64,000 bases of DNA from Octopus vulgaris (Eukaryota). The DNA lies in NCBI GenBank assembly GCA_951406725.2, contig OX597831.1, positions 54,188,001 to 54,252,000 of the forward strand, written 5' to 3'. Both the position numbers and the translations under genes were made by a program. Under the pieces are notes generated by a model. It saw only the letters and a program-made list of their open reading frames with translations, made no database searches and had not been told where the DNA came from. Shown here piece by piece: positions 3,155-64,000 of this stretch (position 1 is the stretch's first letter; each line of letters begins with the position of its first letter).

Positions 3155-3950
3155 CTATTTATATGAGTGAAAGGTGTGTCTTTTCCAGTGCAAACACCTG
3201 TAGGATCTTTCGACGATTGTATTTATTAAAGGGACTTTGGCGAACAAAATATGAAAAAGTTCGGAATTACAGATGCCACAAAATTTTTTGCCTTTATCAA
3301 ACGGGAAGGACACCGACAAAATGGACCATTCGAGCTTGAACGTAGTGTTATTGTTCTTCAGACGCCAGGCTAATTTGCTTAGCCCCGTGCTGTGTTGCTT
3401 TCTCTTATCTCTGAAAGTGGAATAATGGTTGGAGATCCTTTGGGATAATTTAGAAGAGGTTGTGCCAATGTAGAAGTAGACATCGGTTCCAGAAGAGATT
3501 TTGCATTGGTAAGTGGTGTTTCTAATTTTGGAATTTTTGGATAAGAACTTTAATCTGTTGCGGTTGGTTTCCGATACTAAGACAGAGTTTTTATTGTTGT
3601 GATAGGTGTAAAAATTGTTGCTGGCTTTGGCCACGATACTATTCATCTTATTATCATTACTATTAGTTGTAATTTTTAGGGCCTTATTGAGCACGCTGGG
3701 GTTTATCGAAGGGTAGAAATTGGAAATATCGAATTGAATGAATTTAGTGCTATTTTTATTAGAAATGGAAGAGAACCATTCTACGACTTGAGTGGAGTTA
3801 GACCATATGTTGAGTTTAAGCTTATTAACTAATCTAGGTATGTATTTATCTAAAATGTACTTACTGATGGAACCGATGTCGGAACTAGAAGGGCGAATGA
3901 GCCTTAATGCTGGTTGGTTTGGAAGTTTGGTTTATGGTCCTTGACGATGA
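3155..3950 (-). pseudogene. Penelope RT fragment plus GIY-YIG endonuclease
   Basis: ORF 3155-3694 has YQC..YIGTT..RISNH..T.LSK..W.LK..W.IL..CxxC..CxH. Upstream sequence gives RT motif FDISNFYPSI; the RT core between them is deleted. Confidence 0.8.
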
Positions 3951-26153: not shown

Positions 26154-26700
26154 TCAATCTTTGTATTGTAAGGGTGAGCTTCTCTTATTATGGACCAAGC
26201 TAGTGTATATTGCACATGTCTCGGTGAAGGAATTTAAGTGAGCTTGATAACGACGCTTAAAATCTATGGTACTGCCAATATAGACCTTTGCTTGGTGTGT
26301 GTCAGGTGTTTCTACACAACTTTTATAAATCATGTTTTTGCGCAGACAAAATCTCGCAAGCGGACATGCGTTAGGGATGCGACAATTACAGAGTTTCCTT
26401 CTTATTCCACTGTAATTATTGATTGTGTTGCTTTTATTGACTGGACTTAGACGGAGTGCAGTATATGAATTTAGGTATGTAGCTGTCTGAAGTTGGAGTT
26501 TACGTCTATTAAGAAAGGCTATTATAGATCCTAATTTTGGTGTGGAGTAAGATAATTTCACTGATGATTTGTTAAAAATAGAGTAGTATTTATGATGTTG
26601 CGGAAAATTGGATTTCAGAATTATAAAAAATATTTTAGGTAAAGATTTAACCTGGAGAGAGAAGGGCGGTACATACCATAGGATTTCTCATTTTCTAGTC
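26154..26700 (-). pseudogene. Naiad-type Penelope GIY-YIG fragment
   Basis: KLSYS.PKLGSII..CNCRIPNACPL..MIY..VYIGST..RRYQAH. Confidence 0.75.
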
Positions 26701-37617: not shown

Positions 37618-37895
37618 AGGGGAGAATTCACTAAAAAACTAAAGACGAAGACAGGTGATGTAGATAAGAAACAGATGTATTAGTTTAATGCTCGGGAAGT
37701 GAAAAAGTTTTTAATGTTTCGAGCCTACGTTCTTCCACAGAAAGGAACACAGAAAGAAACAGGGAGAGAAAATAAAGAATGTGTAGTAGCTAGCGATCTA
37801 TCATGGCGAGTGTCAGACAGAGGGGTCACACAGGAGAGCTAGGAAGAAGGGGAGATTATAAAGTAGTGGTGATCCCAAAATGAAGGTCCGCGTGC
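37618..37895 (-). repeat. Solo pLTR of the Neptune-type element
   Basis: Reverse complement of ~25560-25810; flanked by (TA)n. Confidence 0.7.
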
Positions 37896-37931
37896 GTATA
37901 TATATATATATATATATATAGTAACCACAGA

Positions 37932-38714
37932 ATGACTAATAACATTAACATTAATAGTAATAATAGCAATGCCGATATTAGTAGAAGTAATAATGTTAAT
38001 AATAGAAATAATAGAAATAGGGAAAATAGAGAAAATAAGGAGAATGAAAATATTAGTGATATCTATAACAACAATATGCAGTCGGATAAAAAGACTAGCA
38101 ATAATATTAACATTACCAATAATATAAGAAATCATGGTAGGACTTTAGATCTAAATAATGAAACAGAAGGATCAAGAAATAATAGCAGTACTTTAGATAT
38201 CAGCACCAACTATAGAAATGATAATCAAAATAATAGGAACCTAAAACATCTACCCAAGAATAATCCAAAGCCTGAAGGTGTTCCTCCTGTGTGTAAGTGT
38301 AGAATAAAATCAAAATGCCCGGCACCTGGTCTATGTGGAGAAAATAATGTAATCTATAAATGTACCATATCCACGGAGAATAACAAATATCATTACATTG
38401 GATGTACAATAAATTTTTTAGCTAGAGTTAGAAATCACATCTCGACTTTTAAATTACGTCATAAAGCTGGTACCACCACACTTTCAAACAAAATCTGGGA
38501 ACTCAAAAATAATAATAAAAATTATAACCTTAATTGGGAAATAGTTAGGAGAGCAATTCCGTATAAAAATAGTAGGGTTGGTTGCCAACTATGCTCCATG
38601 GAGACATATGAAATTCTAAAGCATAGAAAACATAGAAACCTATTGAATAACCATATCGAGCTAGGTCAAGTTTGTGTCCACGCTAAATTGAAGACTTTAA
38701 AATATTTTAAATGA
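37932..38714 (+). CDS. GIY-YIG endonuclease domain of a Penelope-like element (intact frame, lacks RT)
   Basis: NVIYKC...YHYIGCT...RVRNH...TTLSNKIWELK...CQLCSME...CVH motifs. Confidence 0.8.
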   Translation: MTNNININSNNSNADISRSNNVNNRNNRNRENRENKENENISDIYNNNMQSDKKTSNNINITNNIRNHGRTLDLNNETEGSRNNSSTLDISTNYRNDNQNNRNLKHLPKNNPKPEGVPPVCKCRIKSKCPAPGLCGENNVIYKCTISTENNKYHYIGCTINFLARVRNHISTFKLRHKAGTTTLSNKIWELKNNNKNYNLNWEIVRRAIPYKNSRVGCQLCSMETYEILKHRKHRNLLNNHIELGQVCVHAKLKTLKYFK

Positions 38715-50427: not shown

Positions 50428-52120
50428 TCTCTCTATATAAAATTCTTTATCTATCTGTCCCCTATGCATTCTCAAACTTCTCCACCAAATCAAATCAAAT
50501 TTTACAAAGTAATAGTATTAGACCCCGCGAGTGTCGACATGTAATTTTTATTTTCATTTGGATTAAAATAATATAACTCTTCTCGAAAATAATCTTTCTA
50601 TAGTCAACTATAGTAAAGGACATCTTAAACCACGACGACGGTGTCACATTTCGTATATGAGTGTGTATGTATCTGTGAGCGTGTGTCTGTTTGCGCGACC
50701 GTTACATACGACATAGTAAAGGATATTTTATACGACGACGACGACGACACATTCGGTATATAAGTGTATATATGTCTGTCAGTCTGTGTGTGTGTTTGCG
50801 CGTTCGTTACGTAAATGTTTGTCTGTGTGTGTCTGTCTTAGTATATGTATATGAGTGTATGTGAAAGTGCATGACCGTGTCAGTGTATGTGAGAGTGTAT
50901 GTGTGTGTGAGTGTATTGTGATTGTCAATTACACTGTTGTAAACTGGCTGTGAAAGAGGTATATTGGCTCCAACAAATGAAATGGTTGATAAGCTCAATC
51001 ATAAACTTCTTCAAAAGTTAACAGATTCATCAGAAATGACTTTTCCTTCAATACACACAACAGTCGATCAAGATCAGGCTGTTCAATATCCTGTTGAATT
51101 TCTGAACACTCTTAAACCCACTGGGATGCCACCGCATAACTTAACACTAAAGCTGGATGCTCCCATTAAGTTGACTAGGAATCTTAACCCACCTTGCCTG
51201 TGTAATGGAACTCGCTTAATTGTTACTTCCATGAAGTCCCATGTCCTACAGGCAACAATCATAACAGGTAGTCACAAAGAAGAAGCTGTCTTTCTTTCAA
51301 AATTTCCTCTCATACCTACAGATGTTCCATTTGAATTTAAGGGGCTTCAGTTTCCAGTCAAACTAAGTTTAGCATTTCAATTAATAAATCTCAGGGTCAA
51401 TCCTACAAGATAATTGAACTTCTTCTCTCTACTACATGTTCTCCAACAGCCAACTCTATGTTGATGCTCACGAGTTGGAAGCAGCAACAATTATTTCATT
51501 TGGACACCAACATAAAATTACACAATGAATATTTTTTACTCTGAGATACTTCAAGATCGACAGATTTTCAGTTCTAAATTCTATTATCATTACAATTTCG
51601 ATATTTTTAAAATAAAATATAGATATTTTGAAATAATTATAAGGAAAAAAGATGAGTGGCTGTGTGGTAAGTAGCTTGCTTACCAACCACATGGTTCCGG
51701 GTTCAGTCCCACTGCGTGGCACCTTGGGCAAGTGTCTTCTACTATAGCCTCGGGCCGACCAAAGCCTTGTGAGTGGATTTGGTAGACAGAAACTGAAAGA
51801 AGCCCGTCGTATATATGCATATATATGTGTGTGTGTATGTTTGTGTGTCTGTGTTTGTTCCCCTAGCATTGTTTGACAACCGATGCTGGTGTGTTTATGT
51901 CCCCGTTACTTAGAGGTTCGGCAAAAGAGACCGATAGAATAAGTACTGGGCTTACAAAAGAATAAGTCCCGGGGTCGAGTTGCTCGATTAAAGGCGGTGC
52001 TCCAGCATGGCCGCAGTCAAAATGACTGAAACAAGGAAAAAAAAAATATCTTCTTATTTATTGTTTACTAATCTGAATAAGAGCAGCAGTAACCCGGGCA
52101 ATGACGGGTAATTCAGCTGG
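50428..52120 (+). mobile_element. Internally deleted Helitron with PIF1-like helicase C-terminal fragment (SINE inserted)
   Basis: 50964-51480: LAPTNEMVD..YPVEFLNTL.PTGMPPHNLTLK..CNGTRL..QFPVKL..INKSQGQS..QLYV. 3' end CCCGGGCAATGACGGG..GCTGG. Confidence 0.8.
51653..52045 (+). mobile_element. SINE family A copy nested in Helitron
   Basis: Full family A sequence. Confidence 0.85.
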
Positions 52121-55915: not shown

Positions 55916-57191
55916 GGGTTGGACAAAATAATAGAAATACCTTAAAATTTCAAACAAATTTATTTTAATATGGGGTAGGACCGCCTTTGGCAGTAATTGC
56001 AGCTTGAATTCTACTAGGTATGGACTCCTATAAAGTTTGAATTGTTTCCAAAAGAATTTTTATCCATTCTTCAGTTAAAACAGTCTCCGGTTCTTGTAGT
56101 GATAATAGTGGAGGATATCAACTCTTTAGTTTGTTTTTTTCTAAAATACACCATAAATGTTCAATACTATTGAGATCTGGGTACTGTGGTGGCCAGATAA
56201 GATGTTCAACTTCAGTAGAATGTTCCTCGCACCATTGAGTAACAACTTTAGTCGTGTGAATTGGTGCATTATTATCCTGAAAGATTGCGTTTCCCTCCGG
56301 TAACAGTTCCGCAACCATAGGATGAATTTGATCAGATAAAATGCTTAAATAGTCTTGACTATTAATTTTGCCATGAAGGGAAACCATTGGGTCGGCGGAT
56401 TTCCAAGATATAGCACCAGCCAGATCATCACAGATCCTCCTCCGTGTTTAACAGTTGGAAAAAGGCAGTCTTGGTCAAATGCTTCTTTTGGCTGTCTGCA
56501 CTCGTATACTCGGCCGGTGGTCGGAAATAAGGTAAAGATGACTCGTCCGAGAAGATAACATTCTTCCACTGCTCTAAGAACCAATTCTGTAGGTTTTTTT
56601 TTACTCCACTCTAAACGCTTTGCAACGTATGTTTTTGAAGTAGTGGTTTTCTGATTGCACCCTCCCGTGAAATCCGGCTTTGTGCAGCTCCCGGAGAGCA
56701 GTTTTTGTGGAAACTGGGTTCTCGATGTGGTCATTAAGCTCTGCAGTAATTTTGGAAGCTGTACTTTCGTGATTCTTTCTAACAATTCGCGTATGAGTCC
56801 GACGGTCACTATCTGAAAGTTTTGGTTTTCTTCCGAAGTTTTGTTTCGACGAGGAGGTTTTTCCCTCTTTCTCAAAGGCTGTCATTACTTTCGAGACAGT
56901 ATTTCTCGATACACCAAACATGTCAACTGTTTTTATTACGCTACCGCCTGTCATACGAGCACCAACTATTTGACCTCTTTGAAAGTCCAATAGATCTGTC
57001 ATTTTAATGAATTTTAATTACTTTTTTCTGATGATATCTAAAAAGAAACAACAATTTTTAGCAAAACATATTATGCAACACTAATAATAAATCAAAAAAC
57101 ATAGTAATAAACAAGCTTTTTCGGTTTTATAGATAGTTCAAAATTATGATGCTATGATGCAAAGTGTTTCCAATATTTTGTCCGACCCCTG
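55913..57191 (-). mobile_element. Full-length decayed Tc1-like transposon (DD36E-type spacing)
   Basis: TIRs CAGGGGTTGGACAAAATA / TATTTTGTCCGACCCCTG, TA on both sides. Transposase from 57002 (MTDLLDFQRGQIVGAR..) through PTVKHGGGSVMIW to QDNNAPIH..WPPQYPDLNSIE with frameshifts. Inserted in the (TA)n of a SINE. Confidence 0.9.
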
Positions 57192-57453: not shown

Positions 57454-58749
57454 TGTATGTATGTATTTATGTGTATGTATATATACATATATATATATAT
57501 GTATGTATTTATGTGTATGTATGTGTATGTATGTGTGTGTGTGTGTGTGTGTGTGTATTGATCGCGCTTAGTCTTGCCAGTCGTGTGTTAAATATGCTTC
57601 GCTTAGAAGGTCTAATCTTTTCTATTCTAGGCACAAGGCCCGAAATTGTTGGGGAGGGGGCCAGTCGATTAGATCGACTCCAGTACGAAACTGGTACTTA
57701 ATTTATCGACCCCGAAAGGATGAAAGGTAAAGTTGACCTCGGCGGAATTTGAACTCAGAACGTAATGACAGACAAAATACTGCTAAGCATTGCGCCCGTC
57801 GTGCTTAACGTTTCTGCCAGCTCGAAGGTCTAATAAGACCGAAATGTACCCATGCGTTCGACCGTAAGCTTTAAAGAGCAAACCCACTCTAGTCTATATT
57901 GCCTATATTGCTAAATAATTCCGATAAACATAATATTGGAGTTATCTCACTAGTTTGTTGATTTTTAAATTTTGGATAGGAAGTTTTTGTTTACTAATTG
58001 CATAGATAATCTCAGTTAATCGACATTTCACCCTACATGTGGGTGACGTGAGAGACTTCTGTGTCTGTATTCCCGGGGTTTTAATTTGCACCATAATACG
58101 CTTGCGTAACATACAAACACAGGTACAAACGTACATAAATTCCCAGATTGACGTAACCACAATATTGATTCAAAAAGGGAAAAAAGTATATGAATGAACT
58201 TTCTATATGACCATAATCCCATTTAGTAGCATAAACACAATTAAACATACATATTCATATTATGTACATACATACATACATACATACATACATACATACA
58301 TACATACATACATACATACATACATACATACATACCTGCGTAAAAAAACATACAAACACGCATATACAGAGACAGAGAGCGAGTGAGAGTGAGAAAAAGA
58401 GACAGAGGATGGGGGAGAGAGAGAAAGTGAGACAAAGAGGGAAAGAGAACAAAAATATAATTTCTTTAAACATTCAAATAGTGAATTACTTCAATTTGTG
58501 ATATTATATTTGTTTGTTGAGCCATTGTAAGAGTGTGACCATGTGCGCAAATGTGTGTGCATATGTGTGTGTATGTGTGAGAGAGAGAGAGCGGGAAGAG
58601 AGGGCGGAGTGTGAGTGTGTGTATGTGTGTGCGTGTGTACGTGCATGCCTGTGTGTGTATGTGTGTGTATGTGTGTGTGCGTGCGTCTATGTGTATGTGT
58701 GTTTTAAATGAATACGTCTTGAGATAAAGTGGAGGTGGAGTCTGATTCG

Positions 58750-58995
58750 TCTCCTATGTCACGTAGCCGTTTTAAAAGCTTCGGAATTCGTCATGTGCTT
58801 ACGTACATCAGTCACGAGGACATGCTGAAAAAAAAAAAGCGAGGGTTAAATATATAAAAAAAAAAAAACAAGCAAATAGGTGAAAAACAATGTATTACAG
58901 AGGTGGGTCACGTGAGTAATTATTAGCAGGTAATCCAGTCGCCATTAACCCAGCGTCGACTTAATATATGGTGCATGTGGTCTGTTCATTCACAG
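58750..58995 (+). promoter_or_regulatory. Putative promoter of the tyrosinase-like gene with M-box/E-box cluster
   Basis: GTCATGTGCT at 58790-58799 (M-box core), GTCACGTGA 58907-58915, GTCACGTA 58758, GTCACGAG 58811, CATGTG 58974-58979, TAATCC 58931-58936, TATA-like TATATAAA 58851 and TAATATA 58962, Inr-like TCATT ~58986. Non-repetitive island directly upstream of the exon. Confidence 0.6.
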
Positions 58996-59169
58996 TAAAA
59001 CAGTTGTACGTTACGGAACTCTGGAGGATCTTAATGGCTTGCTAACAGTAACCAACGCAGGGGAGTGAAAATACATAGAAACTTGCAAAAACAAATTTTT
59101 TTGTTTTTTCTTTTTTTTTTACATTTTCAACTTAGGCAAAAAAAAATATATTTAAATATATTTACGAAT

Positions 59170-59317
59170 ATGCATCGCTATTTGGCTATGGATATTCCTC
59201 AAACATTTTCATGTTTTCTTTTCTTCACATTATTGCCCTCAATTTCTGCACAGTTTCCAAGAGTATGTGCGAAAAATGCCACCACTCCTGATGGAATTTG
59301 TTGTCCAACAAGGCCAG
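59170..59317 (+). CDS. First coding exon of a tyrosinase-family gene (TYR/TYRP1/DCT-like, Cys-rich N-terminus); gene continues downstream
   Basis: Translates MHRYLAMDIPQTFSCFLFFTLLPSISA|QFPRVCAKNATTPDGICCPTRP: hydrophobic signal peptide then QFPRxC-x9-CCP, the mature N-terminus of vertebrate TYRP1 (QFPRQC..CCP) and DCT (QFPRVC..CCP). Ends at a donor site CAG|GTAAAA (phase 1). Alternative start at ATG 59188. No second exon identified in the window. Confidence 0.8.
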
Positions 59318-59937
59318 GTAAAACCCCCTTTTATTTTCCGTTTTCTCTTTCTGGTATAAACTTTCTTTCAGGCATCTTTGTTTTTATGTTTCTTAGGAAA
59401 TGTTTCCCCTATTCTGGCACACAAAAAAAACCTCAACTTATCTATCATTTAACAAAAACAGTCATCGACCTCGCATTTTGCTAAGCTATTTCTTTTTATA
59501 TGGGTAGCAATGTGCGTCACAGTATCTACTTCCGTCTCTTTCTCCCCTTCTAGTTCAAATTTCATTATTATCTTCAATTATTACATTTTTCTTGGGTCAA
59601 TAAGGTAAGTACGAATATGGTAGCGGGACCGATGGACTGTAAGAAATTCAGTATTTGCGTATAATTCACCCTCTACAAATGATGGCCTTGTGTCTCGTCA
59701 AAATAAATCAATAGGACTTATAGATCTGGTTGCATTTATAGCAACACTGATAGTCTTAAACAGTTCGTTAATAACGGATAAACAAAACATTTGAAATATG
59801 TGTCAATTTTTCCGTGAACCATGTTAGTTTAAGTAAATTTAGATAAGTTTTTTTTAATTTTGATACAGCTTCGCTAGTTATCCCTCATCCAAACTTCAAA
59901 GTTTTCTAAATTTGGCAAGACGATATTGATGAAGGCG

Positions 59938-60007
<70 letters not shown>

Positions 60008-60755
60008 TAATAATGATAATGATGGTGGTGGTGGTGATGGTGGTGGTGGTGATGATGATGATGATGATGATAATCCTTTCTACTGTAGGCATAAGGCCTG
60101 AAATTTGAGGGAAGAGATTAAGTCGATTACATCGACCCCAGTGCATAACTGGTACTTTATTTAATCGACTCCGAATGGATGAAAGGCAAAGTTGAACTCA
60201 GCAGAATTTGAACACAGAACGTAGCGACAGACGAAATACCTATTTCTTTACTACCCACAAGGGGCTAAACACAGAGAGGACAAACAAGGGCAGACAAACG
60301 GATTAAGTCGATTACATCGACCCCAGTGCGTAACTGGTACTTATTTAATCGACCCCGAAAGGATGAAAGGCAAAGTCGACCTCGGCGGAATTTGAACTCA
60401 GGACGTAGCGGCAGACGAAATACTGCTAAGCATTTCGCCCTGCGTGCTAACGATTCTGCCAGCTCGCCTCCTTATGATGATAATAATAATAGTTGTTGTT
60501 GTTACTACAGCTGCTGTTGTTGTTGTTGTTGTTGTTGTTAAAGAGACATATTGCTGTTGGACAAAATGCTTAATGGCATTTTTTCCAGGTTCTTTGCGTT
60601 TGAAATTCAAATCTGACCGAAATAAACTTTGCCTTATATCCTTTCGCGATCGATAAAGTAAAGTACCAGTCAAGTACTTGGGTCGATGTAATCGACTTCC
60701 CAGCACCACGCTTTCCTCAAAATTGCTGACCTTGAGCCAAAATTAATAATAATAA

Positions 60756-60786
<31 letters not shown>

Positions 60787-60795
60787 AATAATAAT

Positions 60796-60875
<80 letters not shown>

Positions 60876-61494
60876 ATATAAATCTTCAGTATTAATACTT
60901 TTATTATTAAAAATGTTGTTGTTGTTGATGACGCCATGTACATCCTTCGTGCTTGTTTTGGGGGTAAAAAAAGGCGGGTGTGCAAGATTTCATTATTCAT
61001 GTCGATTGAACTTTTCCATTTATTGAACTTAAACTCTTCACGATTTCCTCATATGAAAGAATCGAAAAATATATCAATAACAATTTTAATTTTTTTTTTC
61101 TTTTATTTAATACCAACTTTGATTTTCCTTTTTTGTCCTTTTAATTTAAGCTAATTAGAACCATGATGTCGTTAGCTTTCGCGCAGCTGAAATCATATTT
61201 CTTTTATACTGATATACTGCGGACGGTAAAGACGAGTAACGACTCGGATTTAAATGTTTGCGCAGCTTTTAGTTATGTCTCTTTAAGTTCTGACTTCAAA
61301 TCTACGAAGCCTGTTTGGGTCTTTCTTCTCTTCGGGATTGACATAACTAAAAGCCGTCTTGTAGTGGTGTCAGTGTAATTGTGTGTACTCTTCCGCCAAA
61401 ATGTGTGCTTTGCGTCCAAGTTTGAAATTATAATTTCTGTATTTAACCTAATTCACATTATCTGCAATGCCATTATCGTATCTTAGTGCCTTCC

Positions 61495-61541
<47 letters not shown>

Positions 61542-61864
61542 AACTTATAAGTAAGGGCTAAAGAAAATTATTTCAAAGCCAATATGCTGATAACAGACTA
61601 TTAAATCGTCAATTTCCTGTGGAAGTTGTTTATAATTTTAACCGTAAAGGTATTTTAATATGCTGCGACATTTCTTGATGGAATTTTTTTCTGTAGAGAA
61701 AAAAACTTCATCCTATATTAGTAGTAGACTATATATATATATATTTAAATAATAAGGGTAAAAATTGAATATTAATTTGATTAATATCAATTTAAACCAG
61801 TGGCCAAGCATATTGAAAAAATCTGAAGATTCAGAAAAATTATATTACATACATATGTCCCTCT

Positions 61865-61896
<32 letters not shown>

Positions 61897-61997
61897 TGTA
61901 TGTATGTATGTATGTATGTATGTATGTATGTATGTATGTATGTATGTATGTATGTATGTATGTATGTATGTATGTATGTATGTATTTATTTATTTGT

Positions 61998-62042
<45 letters not shown>

Positions 62043-62129
62043 CACAGACAGCTAGACGGTCAGACAGACATACGGACGGACAGGCAGACAGACGGACAGG
62101 CAGACAGACGGACAGACAGACAGACGGAC

Positions 62130-62208
<79 letters not shown>

Positions 62209-62365
62209 AATACCTTTTTCAGTATCATTTCTCTGTGCTTTGCGTTATCACTCCTTGGTTTGATTTCTGCAGTAAGATATTAAGATCTTGTCGATATTTT
62301 AAGATCATGCCGCTATGTGTATTATAAGGGTGTCTATTTACTTCTGCCACGTCTGTCTGTCTGTT

Positions 62366-62418
<53 letters not shown>

Positions 62419-62437
62419 GTGTATATATATCTCTAAA

Positions 62438-62496
<59 letters not shown>

Positions 62497-62588
62497 TGTA
62501 TATATATATATATATATACGAGTATATATATATATATACATACATACATACATACATACATACATACATACATACATACATACATACA

Positions 62589-63892
62589 TAGGATGCGATG
62601 GATAAATTGTCGTCATTTTATATTTTTAATTTCGTGCATGCACATTTTTTGGTTTTAATTTTGTCGACTACACAGTATGGTAGGGTCGGTTGAGCACCGT
62701 CTGTGAGAAAAACAGCACCATGACACAATTCACTCTGCCAGAAATTTCGAAACGACATGCTGTACTGTTTAGCATTCGCGCCGGATGCTCCAATACGAAC
62801 ATTTCAGAATGTTTGGGTGTCAATATGAGGACAGTTCAGCGGGTTCTGAAAGAGTTGGACGAGTCTAATGATGATTATGAAGGTACGGCAGCTCGGAAAA
62901 CTCCCTCTAATCATTTGATAAGAAAAGAACACCTGAATTTTTTGATGAGATCCAGGTCATGATTGACAACGATCCCTTCAAGTCAATCAGGTCCATTGCC
63001 AAGGACATGGGAGTGTCTGAGTTTCTTATCAGGCAGGTGTTGCATGAAGACATTCGGTATTCCTCATGCAAGATGAGAAAGAGGCCATTTTTATTCCAAG
63101 CCGTCTAATTTTTATCCCAAGGACAAGAGGAAAGACCCCACTACGAAGCCTTTGAACAAACTCATGCATCCCCTCCAACCGAACATGCTTTGGTTTTTTT
63201 CTCAGACGAGAAAAACTTCTGCCAAGATCAGATGCTGAAAACAAGAACAATCGTTGGCTTGCCGTATCCCCAAAACATGTGCCGAGAGTGATAAAAATAA
63301 AACATCCAGTCAACATCAGGGTGTTTGGAGAGAACACTAGTGATGGCGGCGTTATGCCTCCATTCATCCTCCCACATGGCCTCAGACTCAACACGGAGGC
63401 CTACATCAAGTGCCTGGAGGAGATTAGTGCTGCTCTGAGTCAAGAGGGTGGCTACTGGAACACCCTATGTCTGGCAACAGAACTCTGGACCATGCTACAC
63501 AAGCAGGAAAACCCAGTCATACTGTCAGACAATTTCTGCGACCACATCACCCCTAATATCTGGCCACCAACCTCCTCCATACTGCAACCCACTTGATTAT
63601 TATGTGTGGTGTGCAGTTGAGTGAGAGATCAATAAAACTCCTTGTAATACATGAATTTAAGGCAAGGATTATGGCAGTATTCACCAACTTAAACAAGGAG
63701 ACTGTCCAGAAGTGTTGCAAGAGATTCCGAAATCGTCTGGAGGCCGTGGTTGAAGCCAATGGCAATTTTATTGAATACATTTACTCTCTAGTATTTGCAG
63801 ATATTTTTATGTAATTTTGGTTAATATATCTGTTAAAATGAGATGTCAGTGTTAACTTCATTGTTAGATGACAATTTATTCACTGTACACTG
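62589..63892 (+). mobile_element. Decayed Tc1/mariner transposon, DD37D (maT-like)
   Basis: Imperfect TIRs GGATAAATTGTCGTC / GATGACAATTTATTC; FFSDEKNF, VMPPFI, WQQ..., WPP..NPLDYYVW. About 37 residues between the last two catalytic positions after manual frameshift repair. Lies in the presumed first intron. Confidence 0.8.
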
Positions 63893-63948
63893 TATATACA
63901 TGCATACATACATACATATACATATATACATACATAAATACGTACGTA

Positions 63949-63985
<37 letters not shown>

Positions 63986-64000
63986 TCTTTACTTACATAT

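Follow-up and report, generated by a model that had tools for sequence, protein, structure and literature searches.

MITF is an activator of pigment genes in human melanocytes. In the proximal promoter of mouse Tyr, an M-box is reported 70 bp before the TATA box, with an E-box beyond it (PMC2120943). MITF is described as favouring E-boxes with a 5' T and a 3' A, flanks that separate its sites from those of MYC, and the CATGTG core in its TCATGTG form as typical of MITF differentiation targets (PMC6672050). Among molluscs, MITF of the pearl oyster Pteria penguin is reported to activate a tyr promoter, its E-boxes lying between -1.6 and -1.8 kb and the effects being weak (PMC8173187), and MITF of the abalone Haliotis iris likewise activates a tyr promoter (PMC13544226). 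The tyr promoters of ascidians, as summarised in one report, are without canonical Mitf sites (PMC3334994). Molluscs are described in a 2024 paper as alpha-only in their tyrosinases (PMC11667028), and eight of nine tyrosinases are given as alpha in an argonaut paper (PMC9635652 and preprint). In a table for the squid E. berryi, Tyro-1 (EB00850) is already placed in the TYR/TYRP1/DCT orthogroup (PMC12240821).

Here we analyse the region upstream of a tyrosinase gene of Octopus vulgaris, in a 64,000-nucleotide stretch of DNA (the window). The literature on cephalopod tyrosinase and MITF, the invertebrate M-box and the squid chromatophore, with subscription papers and bioRxiv supplements outside the scope of the search, yielded no listed study of this promoter.

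Results

A cluster of candidate MITF sites upstream of the ATG

The 701-bp promoter stretch is single-copy, with one match across the 2.8-Gb genome. It is preceded by a microsatellite block, and its 3' end is the exon that carries the ATG at 59170 and is followed by a phase-1 donor at 59318. All motif words of the initial annotation, including the 10/11 M-box, were found again in their places, and together they span 222 bp (Table 1). The strong T-flanked E-boxes are GTCATGTG and GTCACGTGA; with two GTCACG half-sites they lie inside 160 bp, and every GTCAYG half-site of the cluster is on the + strand. Both strong sites carry the 5' T and 3' A of the MITF flank rule. The full 11-mer AGTCATGTGCT is absent. 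The CATGTG core with its 5' T is present in GTCATGTGCT (58790-58799); MITF does not read the extended flank of the M-box. The palindrome resembling the CLEAR box (GTCACGTGAC-like) is GTCACGTGAG at 58907, a 9/10 match that is predicted to lie near the start of transcription.

Table 1. Features of the octopus tyrosinase locus. Positions are those of the window unless a contig is named.
Feature	Position	Strand	Remarks
GTCACG half-site	58758..58763	+	Context GTCACGTAG; 7/8 to TCACGTGA; member of the GTCAYG cluster
M-box CGTCATGTGCT	58789..58799	+	10/11 to AGTCATGTGCT; CATGTG core with 5' T; TATA-like element 64 bp downstream
GTCACGAG, imperfect E-box or half-site	58811..58818	+	Putative function
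TATA-like TATAAAA	58853..58859	+	Runs into an A tract; sole TATAWAW within 470 bp before the ATG
GTCACGTGA, palindromic T/A-flanked E-box	58907..58915	+	9/10 to CLEAR box; predicted about +23, in the 5' UTR
TAATCC, K50 homeodomain word	58931..58936	+	Not above chance
GCATGTGG, CATGTG without T/A flanks	58974..58979	+	Weak MiT candidate; predicted about +90
Coding exon 1	59170..59317	+	Residues 1-49: signal peptide and start of Cys-rich domain; phase-1 donor at 59318
Start of intron 1	59318..64000	+	Intron of about 21.2 kb
Exons 2-5, beyond the window	G000:C18:54268508, about 54287122, 54289650, 54297597	+	

The surroundings of the promoter contain broken Tc1/mariner-type transposases and a Pif1 helicase (Helitron-like) fragment, at 56118-57017 (-), 62684-63814 (+) and 50943-51413 (+). 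Three further ORFs, at 3155-3931 (-), 26154-26687 (-) and 37884-38714 (+), were judged by eye to be Penelope-type GIY-YIG endonuclease-like remnants.

Predicted transcription start

We infer a start near 58884 from the TATA-like element. This prediction puts the M-box at -95 and the palindromic E-box at +23. The distance of 64 bp from the M-box to the TATA-like element is followed by 54 bp to the palindromic E-box. TATAWAW-like words occur in 21 of the 27 control regions described below, so the TATAAAA call rests on its location: the longest contig of an RNA-like run begins 41 bp further on.

Read contigs covered 58700-59095 only. In three runs guessed to be RNA, contigs begin at 58894 (depth 41, 1964 nt), 58950 and 59006, and all continue past 59095; the one from 58894, in run X12, covers the palindrome GTCACGTGA. 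If these runs are RNA, transcription takes in the palindrome, TAATCC and the second CATGTG. A DNA-like run extends to 58857. The contig of run X10 (depth 2.7) spans 58740-58936, crossing the M-box and the TATA-like element, and could represent an upstream start or DNA carry-over. None of the runs is recorded as RNA, and contigs cannot establish a start. The CATGTG at 58974, which had been placed near the presumed start, has no 5' T and probably belongs to the 5' UTR, about 90 nt from its beginning. The nearest E-box downstream is CACGTG, which is not the CATGTG of an initiator E-box. The predicted 5' UTR also contains upstream ATGs at 58890, 58968, 58975 and 59034, which open short ORFs of 9, 25, 7 and 3 aa.

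The E-box cluster exceeds chance

The cluster was compared with 600,425 bases of the same genome, divided into 1246 windows; the test window was the 470 bp before the ATG. Two copies of TCAYGTG, a motif taken from the published flank rule, occur in 3 of the 1246 background windows (dinucleotide shuffle p 0.0022). Two copies of GTCAYGTG (shuffle p 5e-5) and four of GTCAYG (2e-4) occur in none, both motifs, unlike TCAYGTG, having been picked after the site was seen. Thus the E-box cluster exceeds chance, and its strongest p-values rest on motifs chosen with the sequence in view. By itself, GTCATGTGCT occurs four times in the 600 kb background, so a 10/11 M-box alone is unremarkable genome-wide; GTCACGTGA occurs once. 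The unusual feature is the clustering at the promoter, not the M-box match itself.

The upstream regions of small-GTPase genes served as controls. From 37 loci, 10 were dropped (four in which no P-loop was found, six internal exons) and 27 were kept. They were defined by their position before an ATG and are not promoters throughout, since nine of them show an acceptor-like signal. TCAYGTG is present in 0 of the 27, and a single GTCAYG in six. Seven alpha-tyrosinase stretches were left out of the controls because they lacked established first exons. CpG is undepleted here (observed/expected about 1).

The read runs available for comparison came from four near-identical organisms, and a search for look-alike windows gave none. 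Organisms B and D differ by one base in the covered parts of the promoter, a comparison with no power on conservation. A metagenome scan gave 101 candidates, which led to two distant loci, neither of them a cephalopod gene by identity.

The gene encodes a membrane-bound tyrosinase of the gamma subclass

The gene has five exons over 50 kb and encodes a 541-aa protein, P0012, mapped from 59170 and named 'tyrosinase-like [Octopus vulgaris]' by NCBI. The residues of exon 1 are identical at 48 of 49 positions in O. bimaculoides P0002. The protein matches PF00264 (6e-36), and in the genome PF00264 is matched 17 and 35 kb past the end of the window. The orthologues are 95% identical in O. bimaculoides (XP_014779110), 81% in Argonauta and 69-71% in two decapod proteins. 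The next relatives, from a nemertean, a frog, a hemichordate, an amphioxus and a flatworm, are at 34-40% identity (deuterostome tyrosinases, 35-40%). No bivalve or gastropod is among the relatives named in 22 matches and in 10 of 150 representatives, the organism being given for six of those 10. The best PDB match of P0012 is TYRP1 (5e-52).

The N-terminus is hydrophobic and is followed by AQ-FPR-C..CCP, which aligns with the vertebrate proteins; the signal peptide is assigned by this alignment, not by a dedicated predictor. The copper-binding histidines are H185, H211 and H220 (CuA) and H368, H372 and H395 (CuB). All five full-length cephalopod proteins have a C-terminal transmembrane helix (hydropathy 3.0 at 471-489) and, in the tail, [DE]EEQPIF followed by YxxY, the octopus form being DEEQPIF. 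Vertebrate tails carry ERQPLL-like words, which have a role in melanosome sorting. In a genome search with the Cys-rich part, one locus was located among seven candidates scored, and the gene is the only membrane-bound gamma-subclass tyrosinase found in this genome. These features are those of the gamma subclass as outlined by Aguilera et al. (PMC3658974).

In a 24-row tree, the gamma proteins stand apart from alpha proteins and hemocyanin (split 98/98, with long outgroup branches). The octopus protein groups with nemertean and fluke/flatworm proteins (98/94), outside the vertebrate-tunicate clade, in a tree that has no TYRP1 row. This position makes the gene a co-orthologue of TYR, TYRP1 and DCT. 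A TYRP identity was considered and rejected: the octopus CuB reads LHHAF as in frog TYR, not VLHAF as in fish DCT, where Leu replaces the His ahead of the last CuB His, and the protein falls outside the chordate clade. The initial annotation had called the gene 'tyrosinase/TYRP-like'. Homology and the tree uphold a vertebrate-type tyrosinase; the TYRP-like part does not stand, as the CuB is of TYR type and TYR and TYRP separated only after the origin of this gene. The gene shows that cephalopods kept the gamma subclass, although reviews give molluscs as alpha-only.

Other type-3 copper proteins lie elsewhere in the genome. Alpha-type tyrosinases form a tandem cluster of at least eight loci (G000:C3:140.2-140.46 Mb). 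Hemocyanin genes occur as three in tandem (C5:96.83-96.92 Mb), as a head-to-head pair (C27:16.19-16.25 Mb) and as a divergent set (C28:28.65 Mb).

Expression of the squid orthologue

Rab32, Hps1, myosin VI and GIPC3 are melanosome traffic proteins, and TDO is an ommochrome enzyme. In Loligo vulgaris, cluster 8, labelled "chromatophores" by its authors, has a marker annotated XP_014779110.1 in 35% versus 2% of cells, and its co-markers include TDO, Rab32, myosin VI, GIPC3 and prosaposin (PMC9839350, supplementary table 1, with columns interpreted as Seurat output). In E. berryi, the cells reported to be marked by Tyro-1 (pct 0.28 vs 0.02) encircle the pupil and also have Rab32 and Hps1 as markers; the Tyro-1 probe reads like P0005 (PMC12240821). 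These sources place expression of the squid orthologue in pigmented cells of the skin and of the pupil rim.

A part in eye, ink or skin pigmentation had been suggested for the octopus gene. The squid data agree with skin and the pupil rim; the part in ink is unsupported. In the portion of an ink proteome supplement that was searched, the accession and peptides of the gamma tyrosinase had no matches and an alpha-type tyrosinase was present (PMC10142993). Ink-gland melanosomes are described as receiving tyrosinase via Golgi vesicles (PMC4052311). A membrane protein can escape detection in secreted ink, so the gamma tyrosinase may still have a role there.

An Otx module, like that of MITF + OTX2 in the retinal pigment epithelium, had also been proposed, from the TAATCC word, and we rejected it. 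TAATCC is at chance level (p 0.17; present in 6 of the 27 control regions), and in the E. berryi table Otx2 marks two photoreceptor clusters, not Pigmented_Tyro1+ (PMC12240821). Otx is a poor candidate for a co-factor.

MiT/TFE factors are largely regulated post-translationally. In the E. berryi retina table, the Mitf rows are photoreceptor r2 and endothelial, with none for tyrosinase cells; the endothelial cluster is also marked by two V-ATPase subunits (PMC12240821). Mitf had no match in the Loligo marker table (PMC9839350), and about 10% of other cells have it. In neither of the two tables is it listed as a marker of the tyrosinase cells, but such tables cannot show absence: a gene expressed without enrichment goes unlisted. 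Given this, and the control of MiT/TFE factors after translation, the missing Mitf marker weakens the case for MITF without refuting it.

An intact MITF and its other candidate targets

The octopus genome contains a MITF/TFE orthologue at G000:C4:49701132-49763600. PF15951 matches two exons on C4, and three further exons encode an intact bHLH-Zip; a PF00010 search missed the gene because introns split this domain. The basic region reads KKDNHNL-I-ERRRR across the intron, and the best PDB match of the bHLH-Zip is MITF (4ATI, 4.5e-10). Together, the PF15951 domain, the basic region and the PDB match confirm the expectation that an intact MITF is present.

V-ATPase genes are reportedly Mitf targets in the fly. 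In the octopus, GTCACATGAC lies 78 bp before the ATG of V-ATPase G and ATCATATGAC about 280 bp before that of V-ATPase c; the 470 bp before the ATG of V-ATPase F are free of such sites, so one of three positive controls is negative. Nor has TDO a site within 1.2 kb of its ATG, its first exon being probably elsewhere. Rab32 was located on C10 without its first exon, the first exons of V-ATPase c'' and HPS1 were looked for and not found, and a genome search for GPR143 gave 0 matches, which is uninformative. Upstream of V-ATPase c'' exon 2, at a distance of about 4 kb, two arms of about 350 bp each form a near-perfect inverted duplication with a MITE-like look (G000:C24, about 47694400-47695200, L133-L131); it holds 28-bp repeats containing GTCACGTG/GTCACATG.

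Discussion

The sites, their excess over chance, the identity of the gene and an intact MITF together lead us to a reading that we consider probable. The region would be a functional MiT/TFE promoter, in which the M-box and the CLEAR-like E-box are bound by the single octopus MITF/TFE and activate the tyrosinase gene; binding is predicted. MITF homodimers would sit on the M-box at about -95 and on the palindrome at about +23, counted from a TATA-directed start near 58884, helped by the two half-sites. Their binding would turn on the tyrosinase gene in pigment cells. The conserved acidic di-hydrophobic tail signal, DEEQPIF and then YxxY, may sort the enzyme to pigment granules of the Rab32/HPS1 type in skin and iris cells. 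Since Mitf expression is broad in squid, cell specificity probably needs a second factor.

The same sites might be functional and yet read mainly by another bHLH-Zip protein, most plausibly USF (or SREBP), which would give general activation and leave specificity elsewhere. USF binds vertebrate M-boxes in vitro, and GGTCACGTGA is also a USF consensus. The two squid tables, in which Mitf is unenriched in tyrosinase cells, fit such a reader. However, the E. berryi retina table has 0 matches for USF and gives SREBP as a marker of photoreceptors (PMC12240821), the TCATGTG form is held to be typical of MITF differentiation targets (PMC6672050), and MITF is reported to act on mollusc tyr promoters. 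We therefore regard a USF or SREBP promoter as unlikely. Chance in a CpG-undepleted genome, with other elements driving the tyrosinase gene, is less probable still. It would draw on the undepleted CpG (observed/expected about 1), the post hoc choice of motifs, the four copies of GTCATGTGCT in 600 kb and the 3 of 1246 windows with two TCAYGTG; but vertebrate biology had set the hypothesis of MITF sites at a TYR orthologue in advance, p is 0.002 or less in shuffles that preserve CpG, and 0 of the 27 controls have the motif.

An ordinary lysosomal input of the CLEAR type, by which tyrosinase, as an enzyme of a lysosome-related granule, entered the MITF lysosomal regulon independently of vertebrates, would imply no dedicated melanocyte-like programme, with MITF merely tuning a basal level. 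Similar words stand in V-ATPase promoters and, occurring 82 times in 600 kb, are easily gained; in the E. berryi table Mitf is a marker of endothelial cells, which are rich in V-ATPase, and the reported lack of canonical Mitf sites in ascidian tyr/tyrp promoters breaks the continuity of the element (PMC3334994). Against this, the tyrosinase promoter, with two strong and two half sites, outnumbers any control, and the squid orthologue is restricted by cell type (pct 0.35 vs 0.02 and 0.28 vs 0.02). We give this account a low probability. It shares its mechanism with the MITF-driven promoter that we prefer and differs in history, so that its weight is counted within that of the preferred reading save for the case of basal tuning.

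History is a separate question from mechanism. The ascidian promoters are reported to be without canonical Mitf sites (PMC3334994), so continuity of the element is doubtful, and a separate origin is no less likely than deep conservation. Deep conservation of an MITF-tyrosinase element is unsupported. A speculative idea, though one worth stating, is that the pigment cells of cephalopod skin and iris use a melanocyte-like programme that goes back to the last bilaterian ancestor, with MITF acting via a proximal M-box on a true TYR orthologue and with Rab32/HPS1 machinery. If so, MITF would be the specifier of octopus colour cells, and the membrane-bound tyrosinase would work within granules that are regarded as ommochrome-based.

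A 160-bp element and a candidate factor bear on the specification of cephalopod chromatophores and iris pigment cells, in a group in which CRISPR works. A protostome TYR orthologue with candidate MITF sites in a mouse-like layout bears on the choice between a shared ancient pigment programme and a re-used lysosomal MITF regulon. Being short, the promoter might also serve to drive transgenes in the pigment cells of squid. In vertebrates, oyster and abalone, tyrosinases are already known to be under the control of MITF, and the octopus case is no new kind of system.

The locus can be set beside four described systems. Like the gamma-subclass type-3 copper proteins, as far as they are outlined in PMC3658974, the octopus protein has a signal peptide, a Cys-rich region, CuA/CuB and a transmembrane helix. 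With the CLEAR/V-ATPase regulon, it has in common that GTCACGTGA is 9/10 to CLEAR and that similar words stand in two of three octopus V-ATPase upstream regions; it differs in having as its target a pigment enzyme restricted by cell type, and in the CATGTG-type M-box that its promoter adds. Pteria penguin and Haliotis iris likewise offer mollusc MITF on tyrosinase promoters, reported there from reporter, one-hybrid and RNAi experiments. In contrast to those of Pteria penguin, the octopus sites are proximal, and the octopus gene is of gamma type, in a phylum described as alpha-only (PMC11667028).

The layout predicted for the octopus gene parallels the mouse/human Tyr proximal promoter, which is reported to have a T-flanked CATGTG M-box 60-70 bp before TATA and a second E-box after it (PMC2120943, PMC6672050), in front of an orthologous membrane-bound tyrosinase. 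The octopus downstream site is a CACGTG palindrome at predicted +23, whereas the vertebrate one is an initiator CATGTG. The octopus M-box is a 10/11 match and is joined by two extra half-sites. Finally, the octopus has one gene where vertebrates have TYR, TYRP1 and DCT, Otx is unsupported, and binding in the octopus is a prediction.
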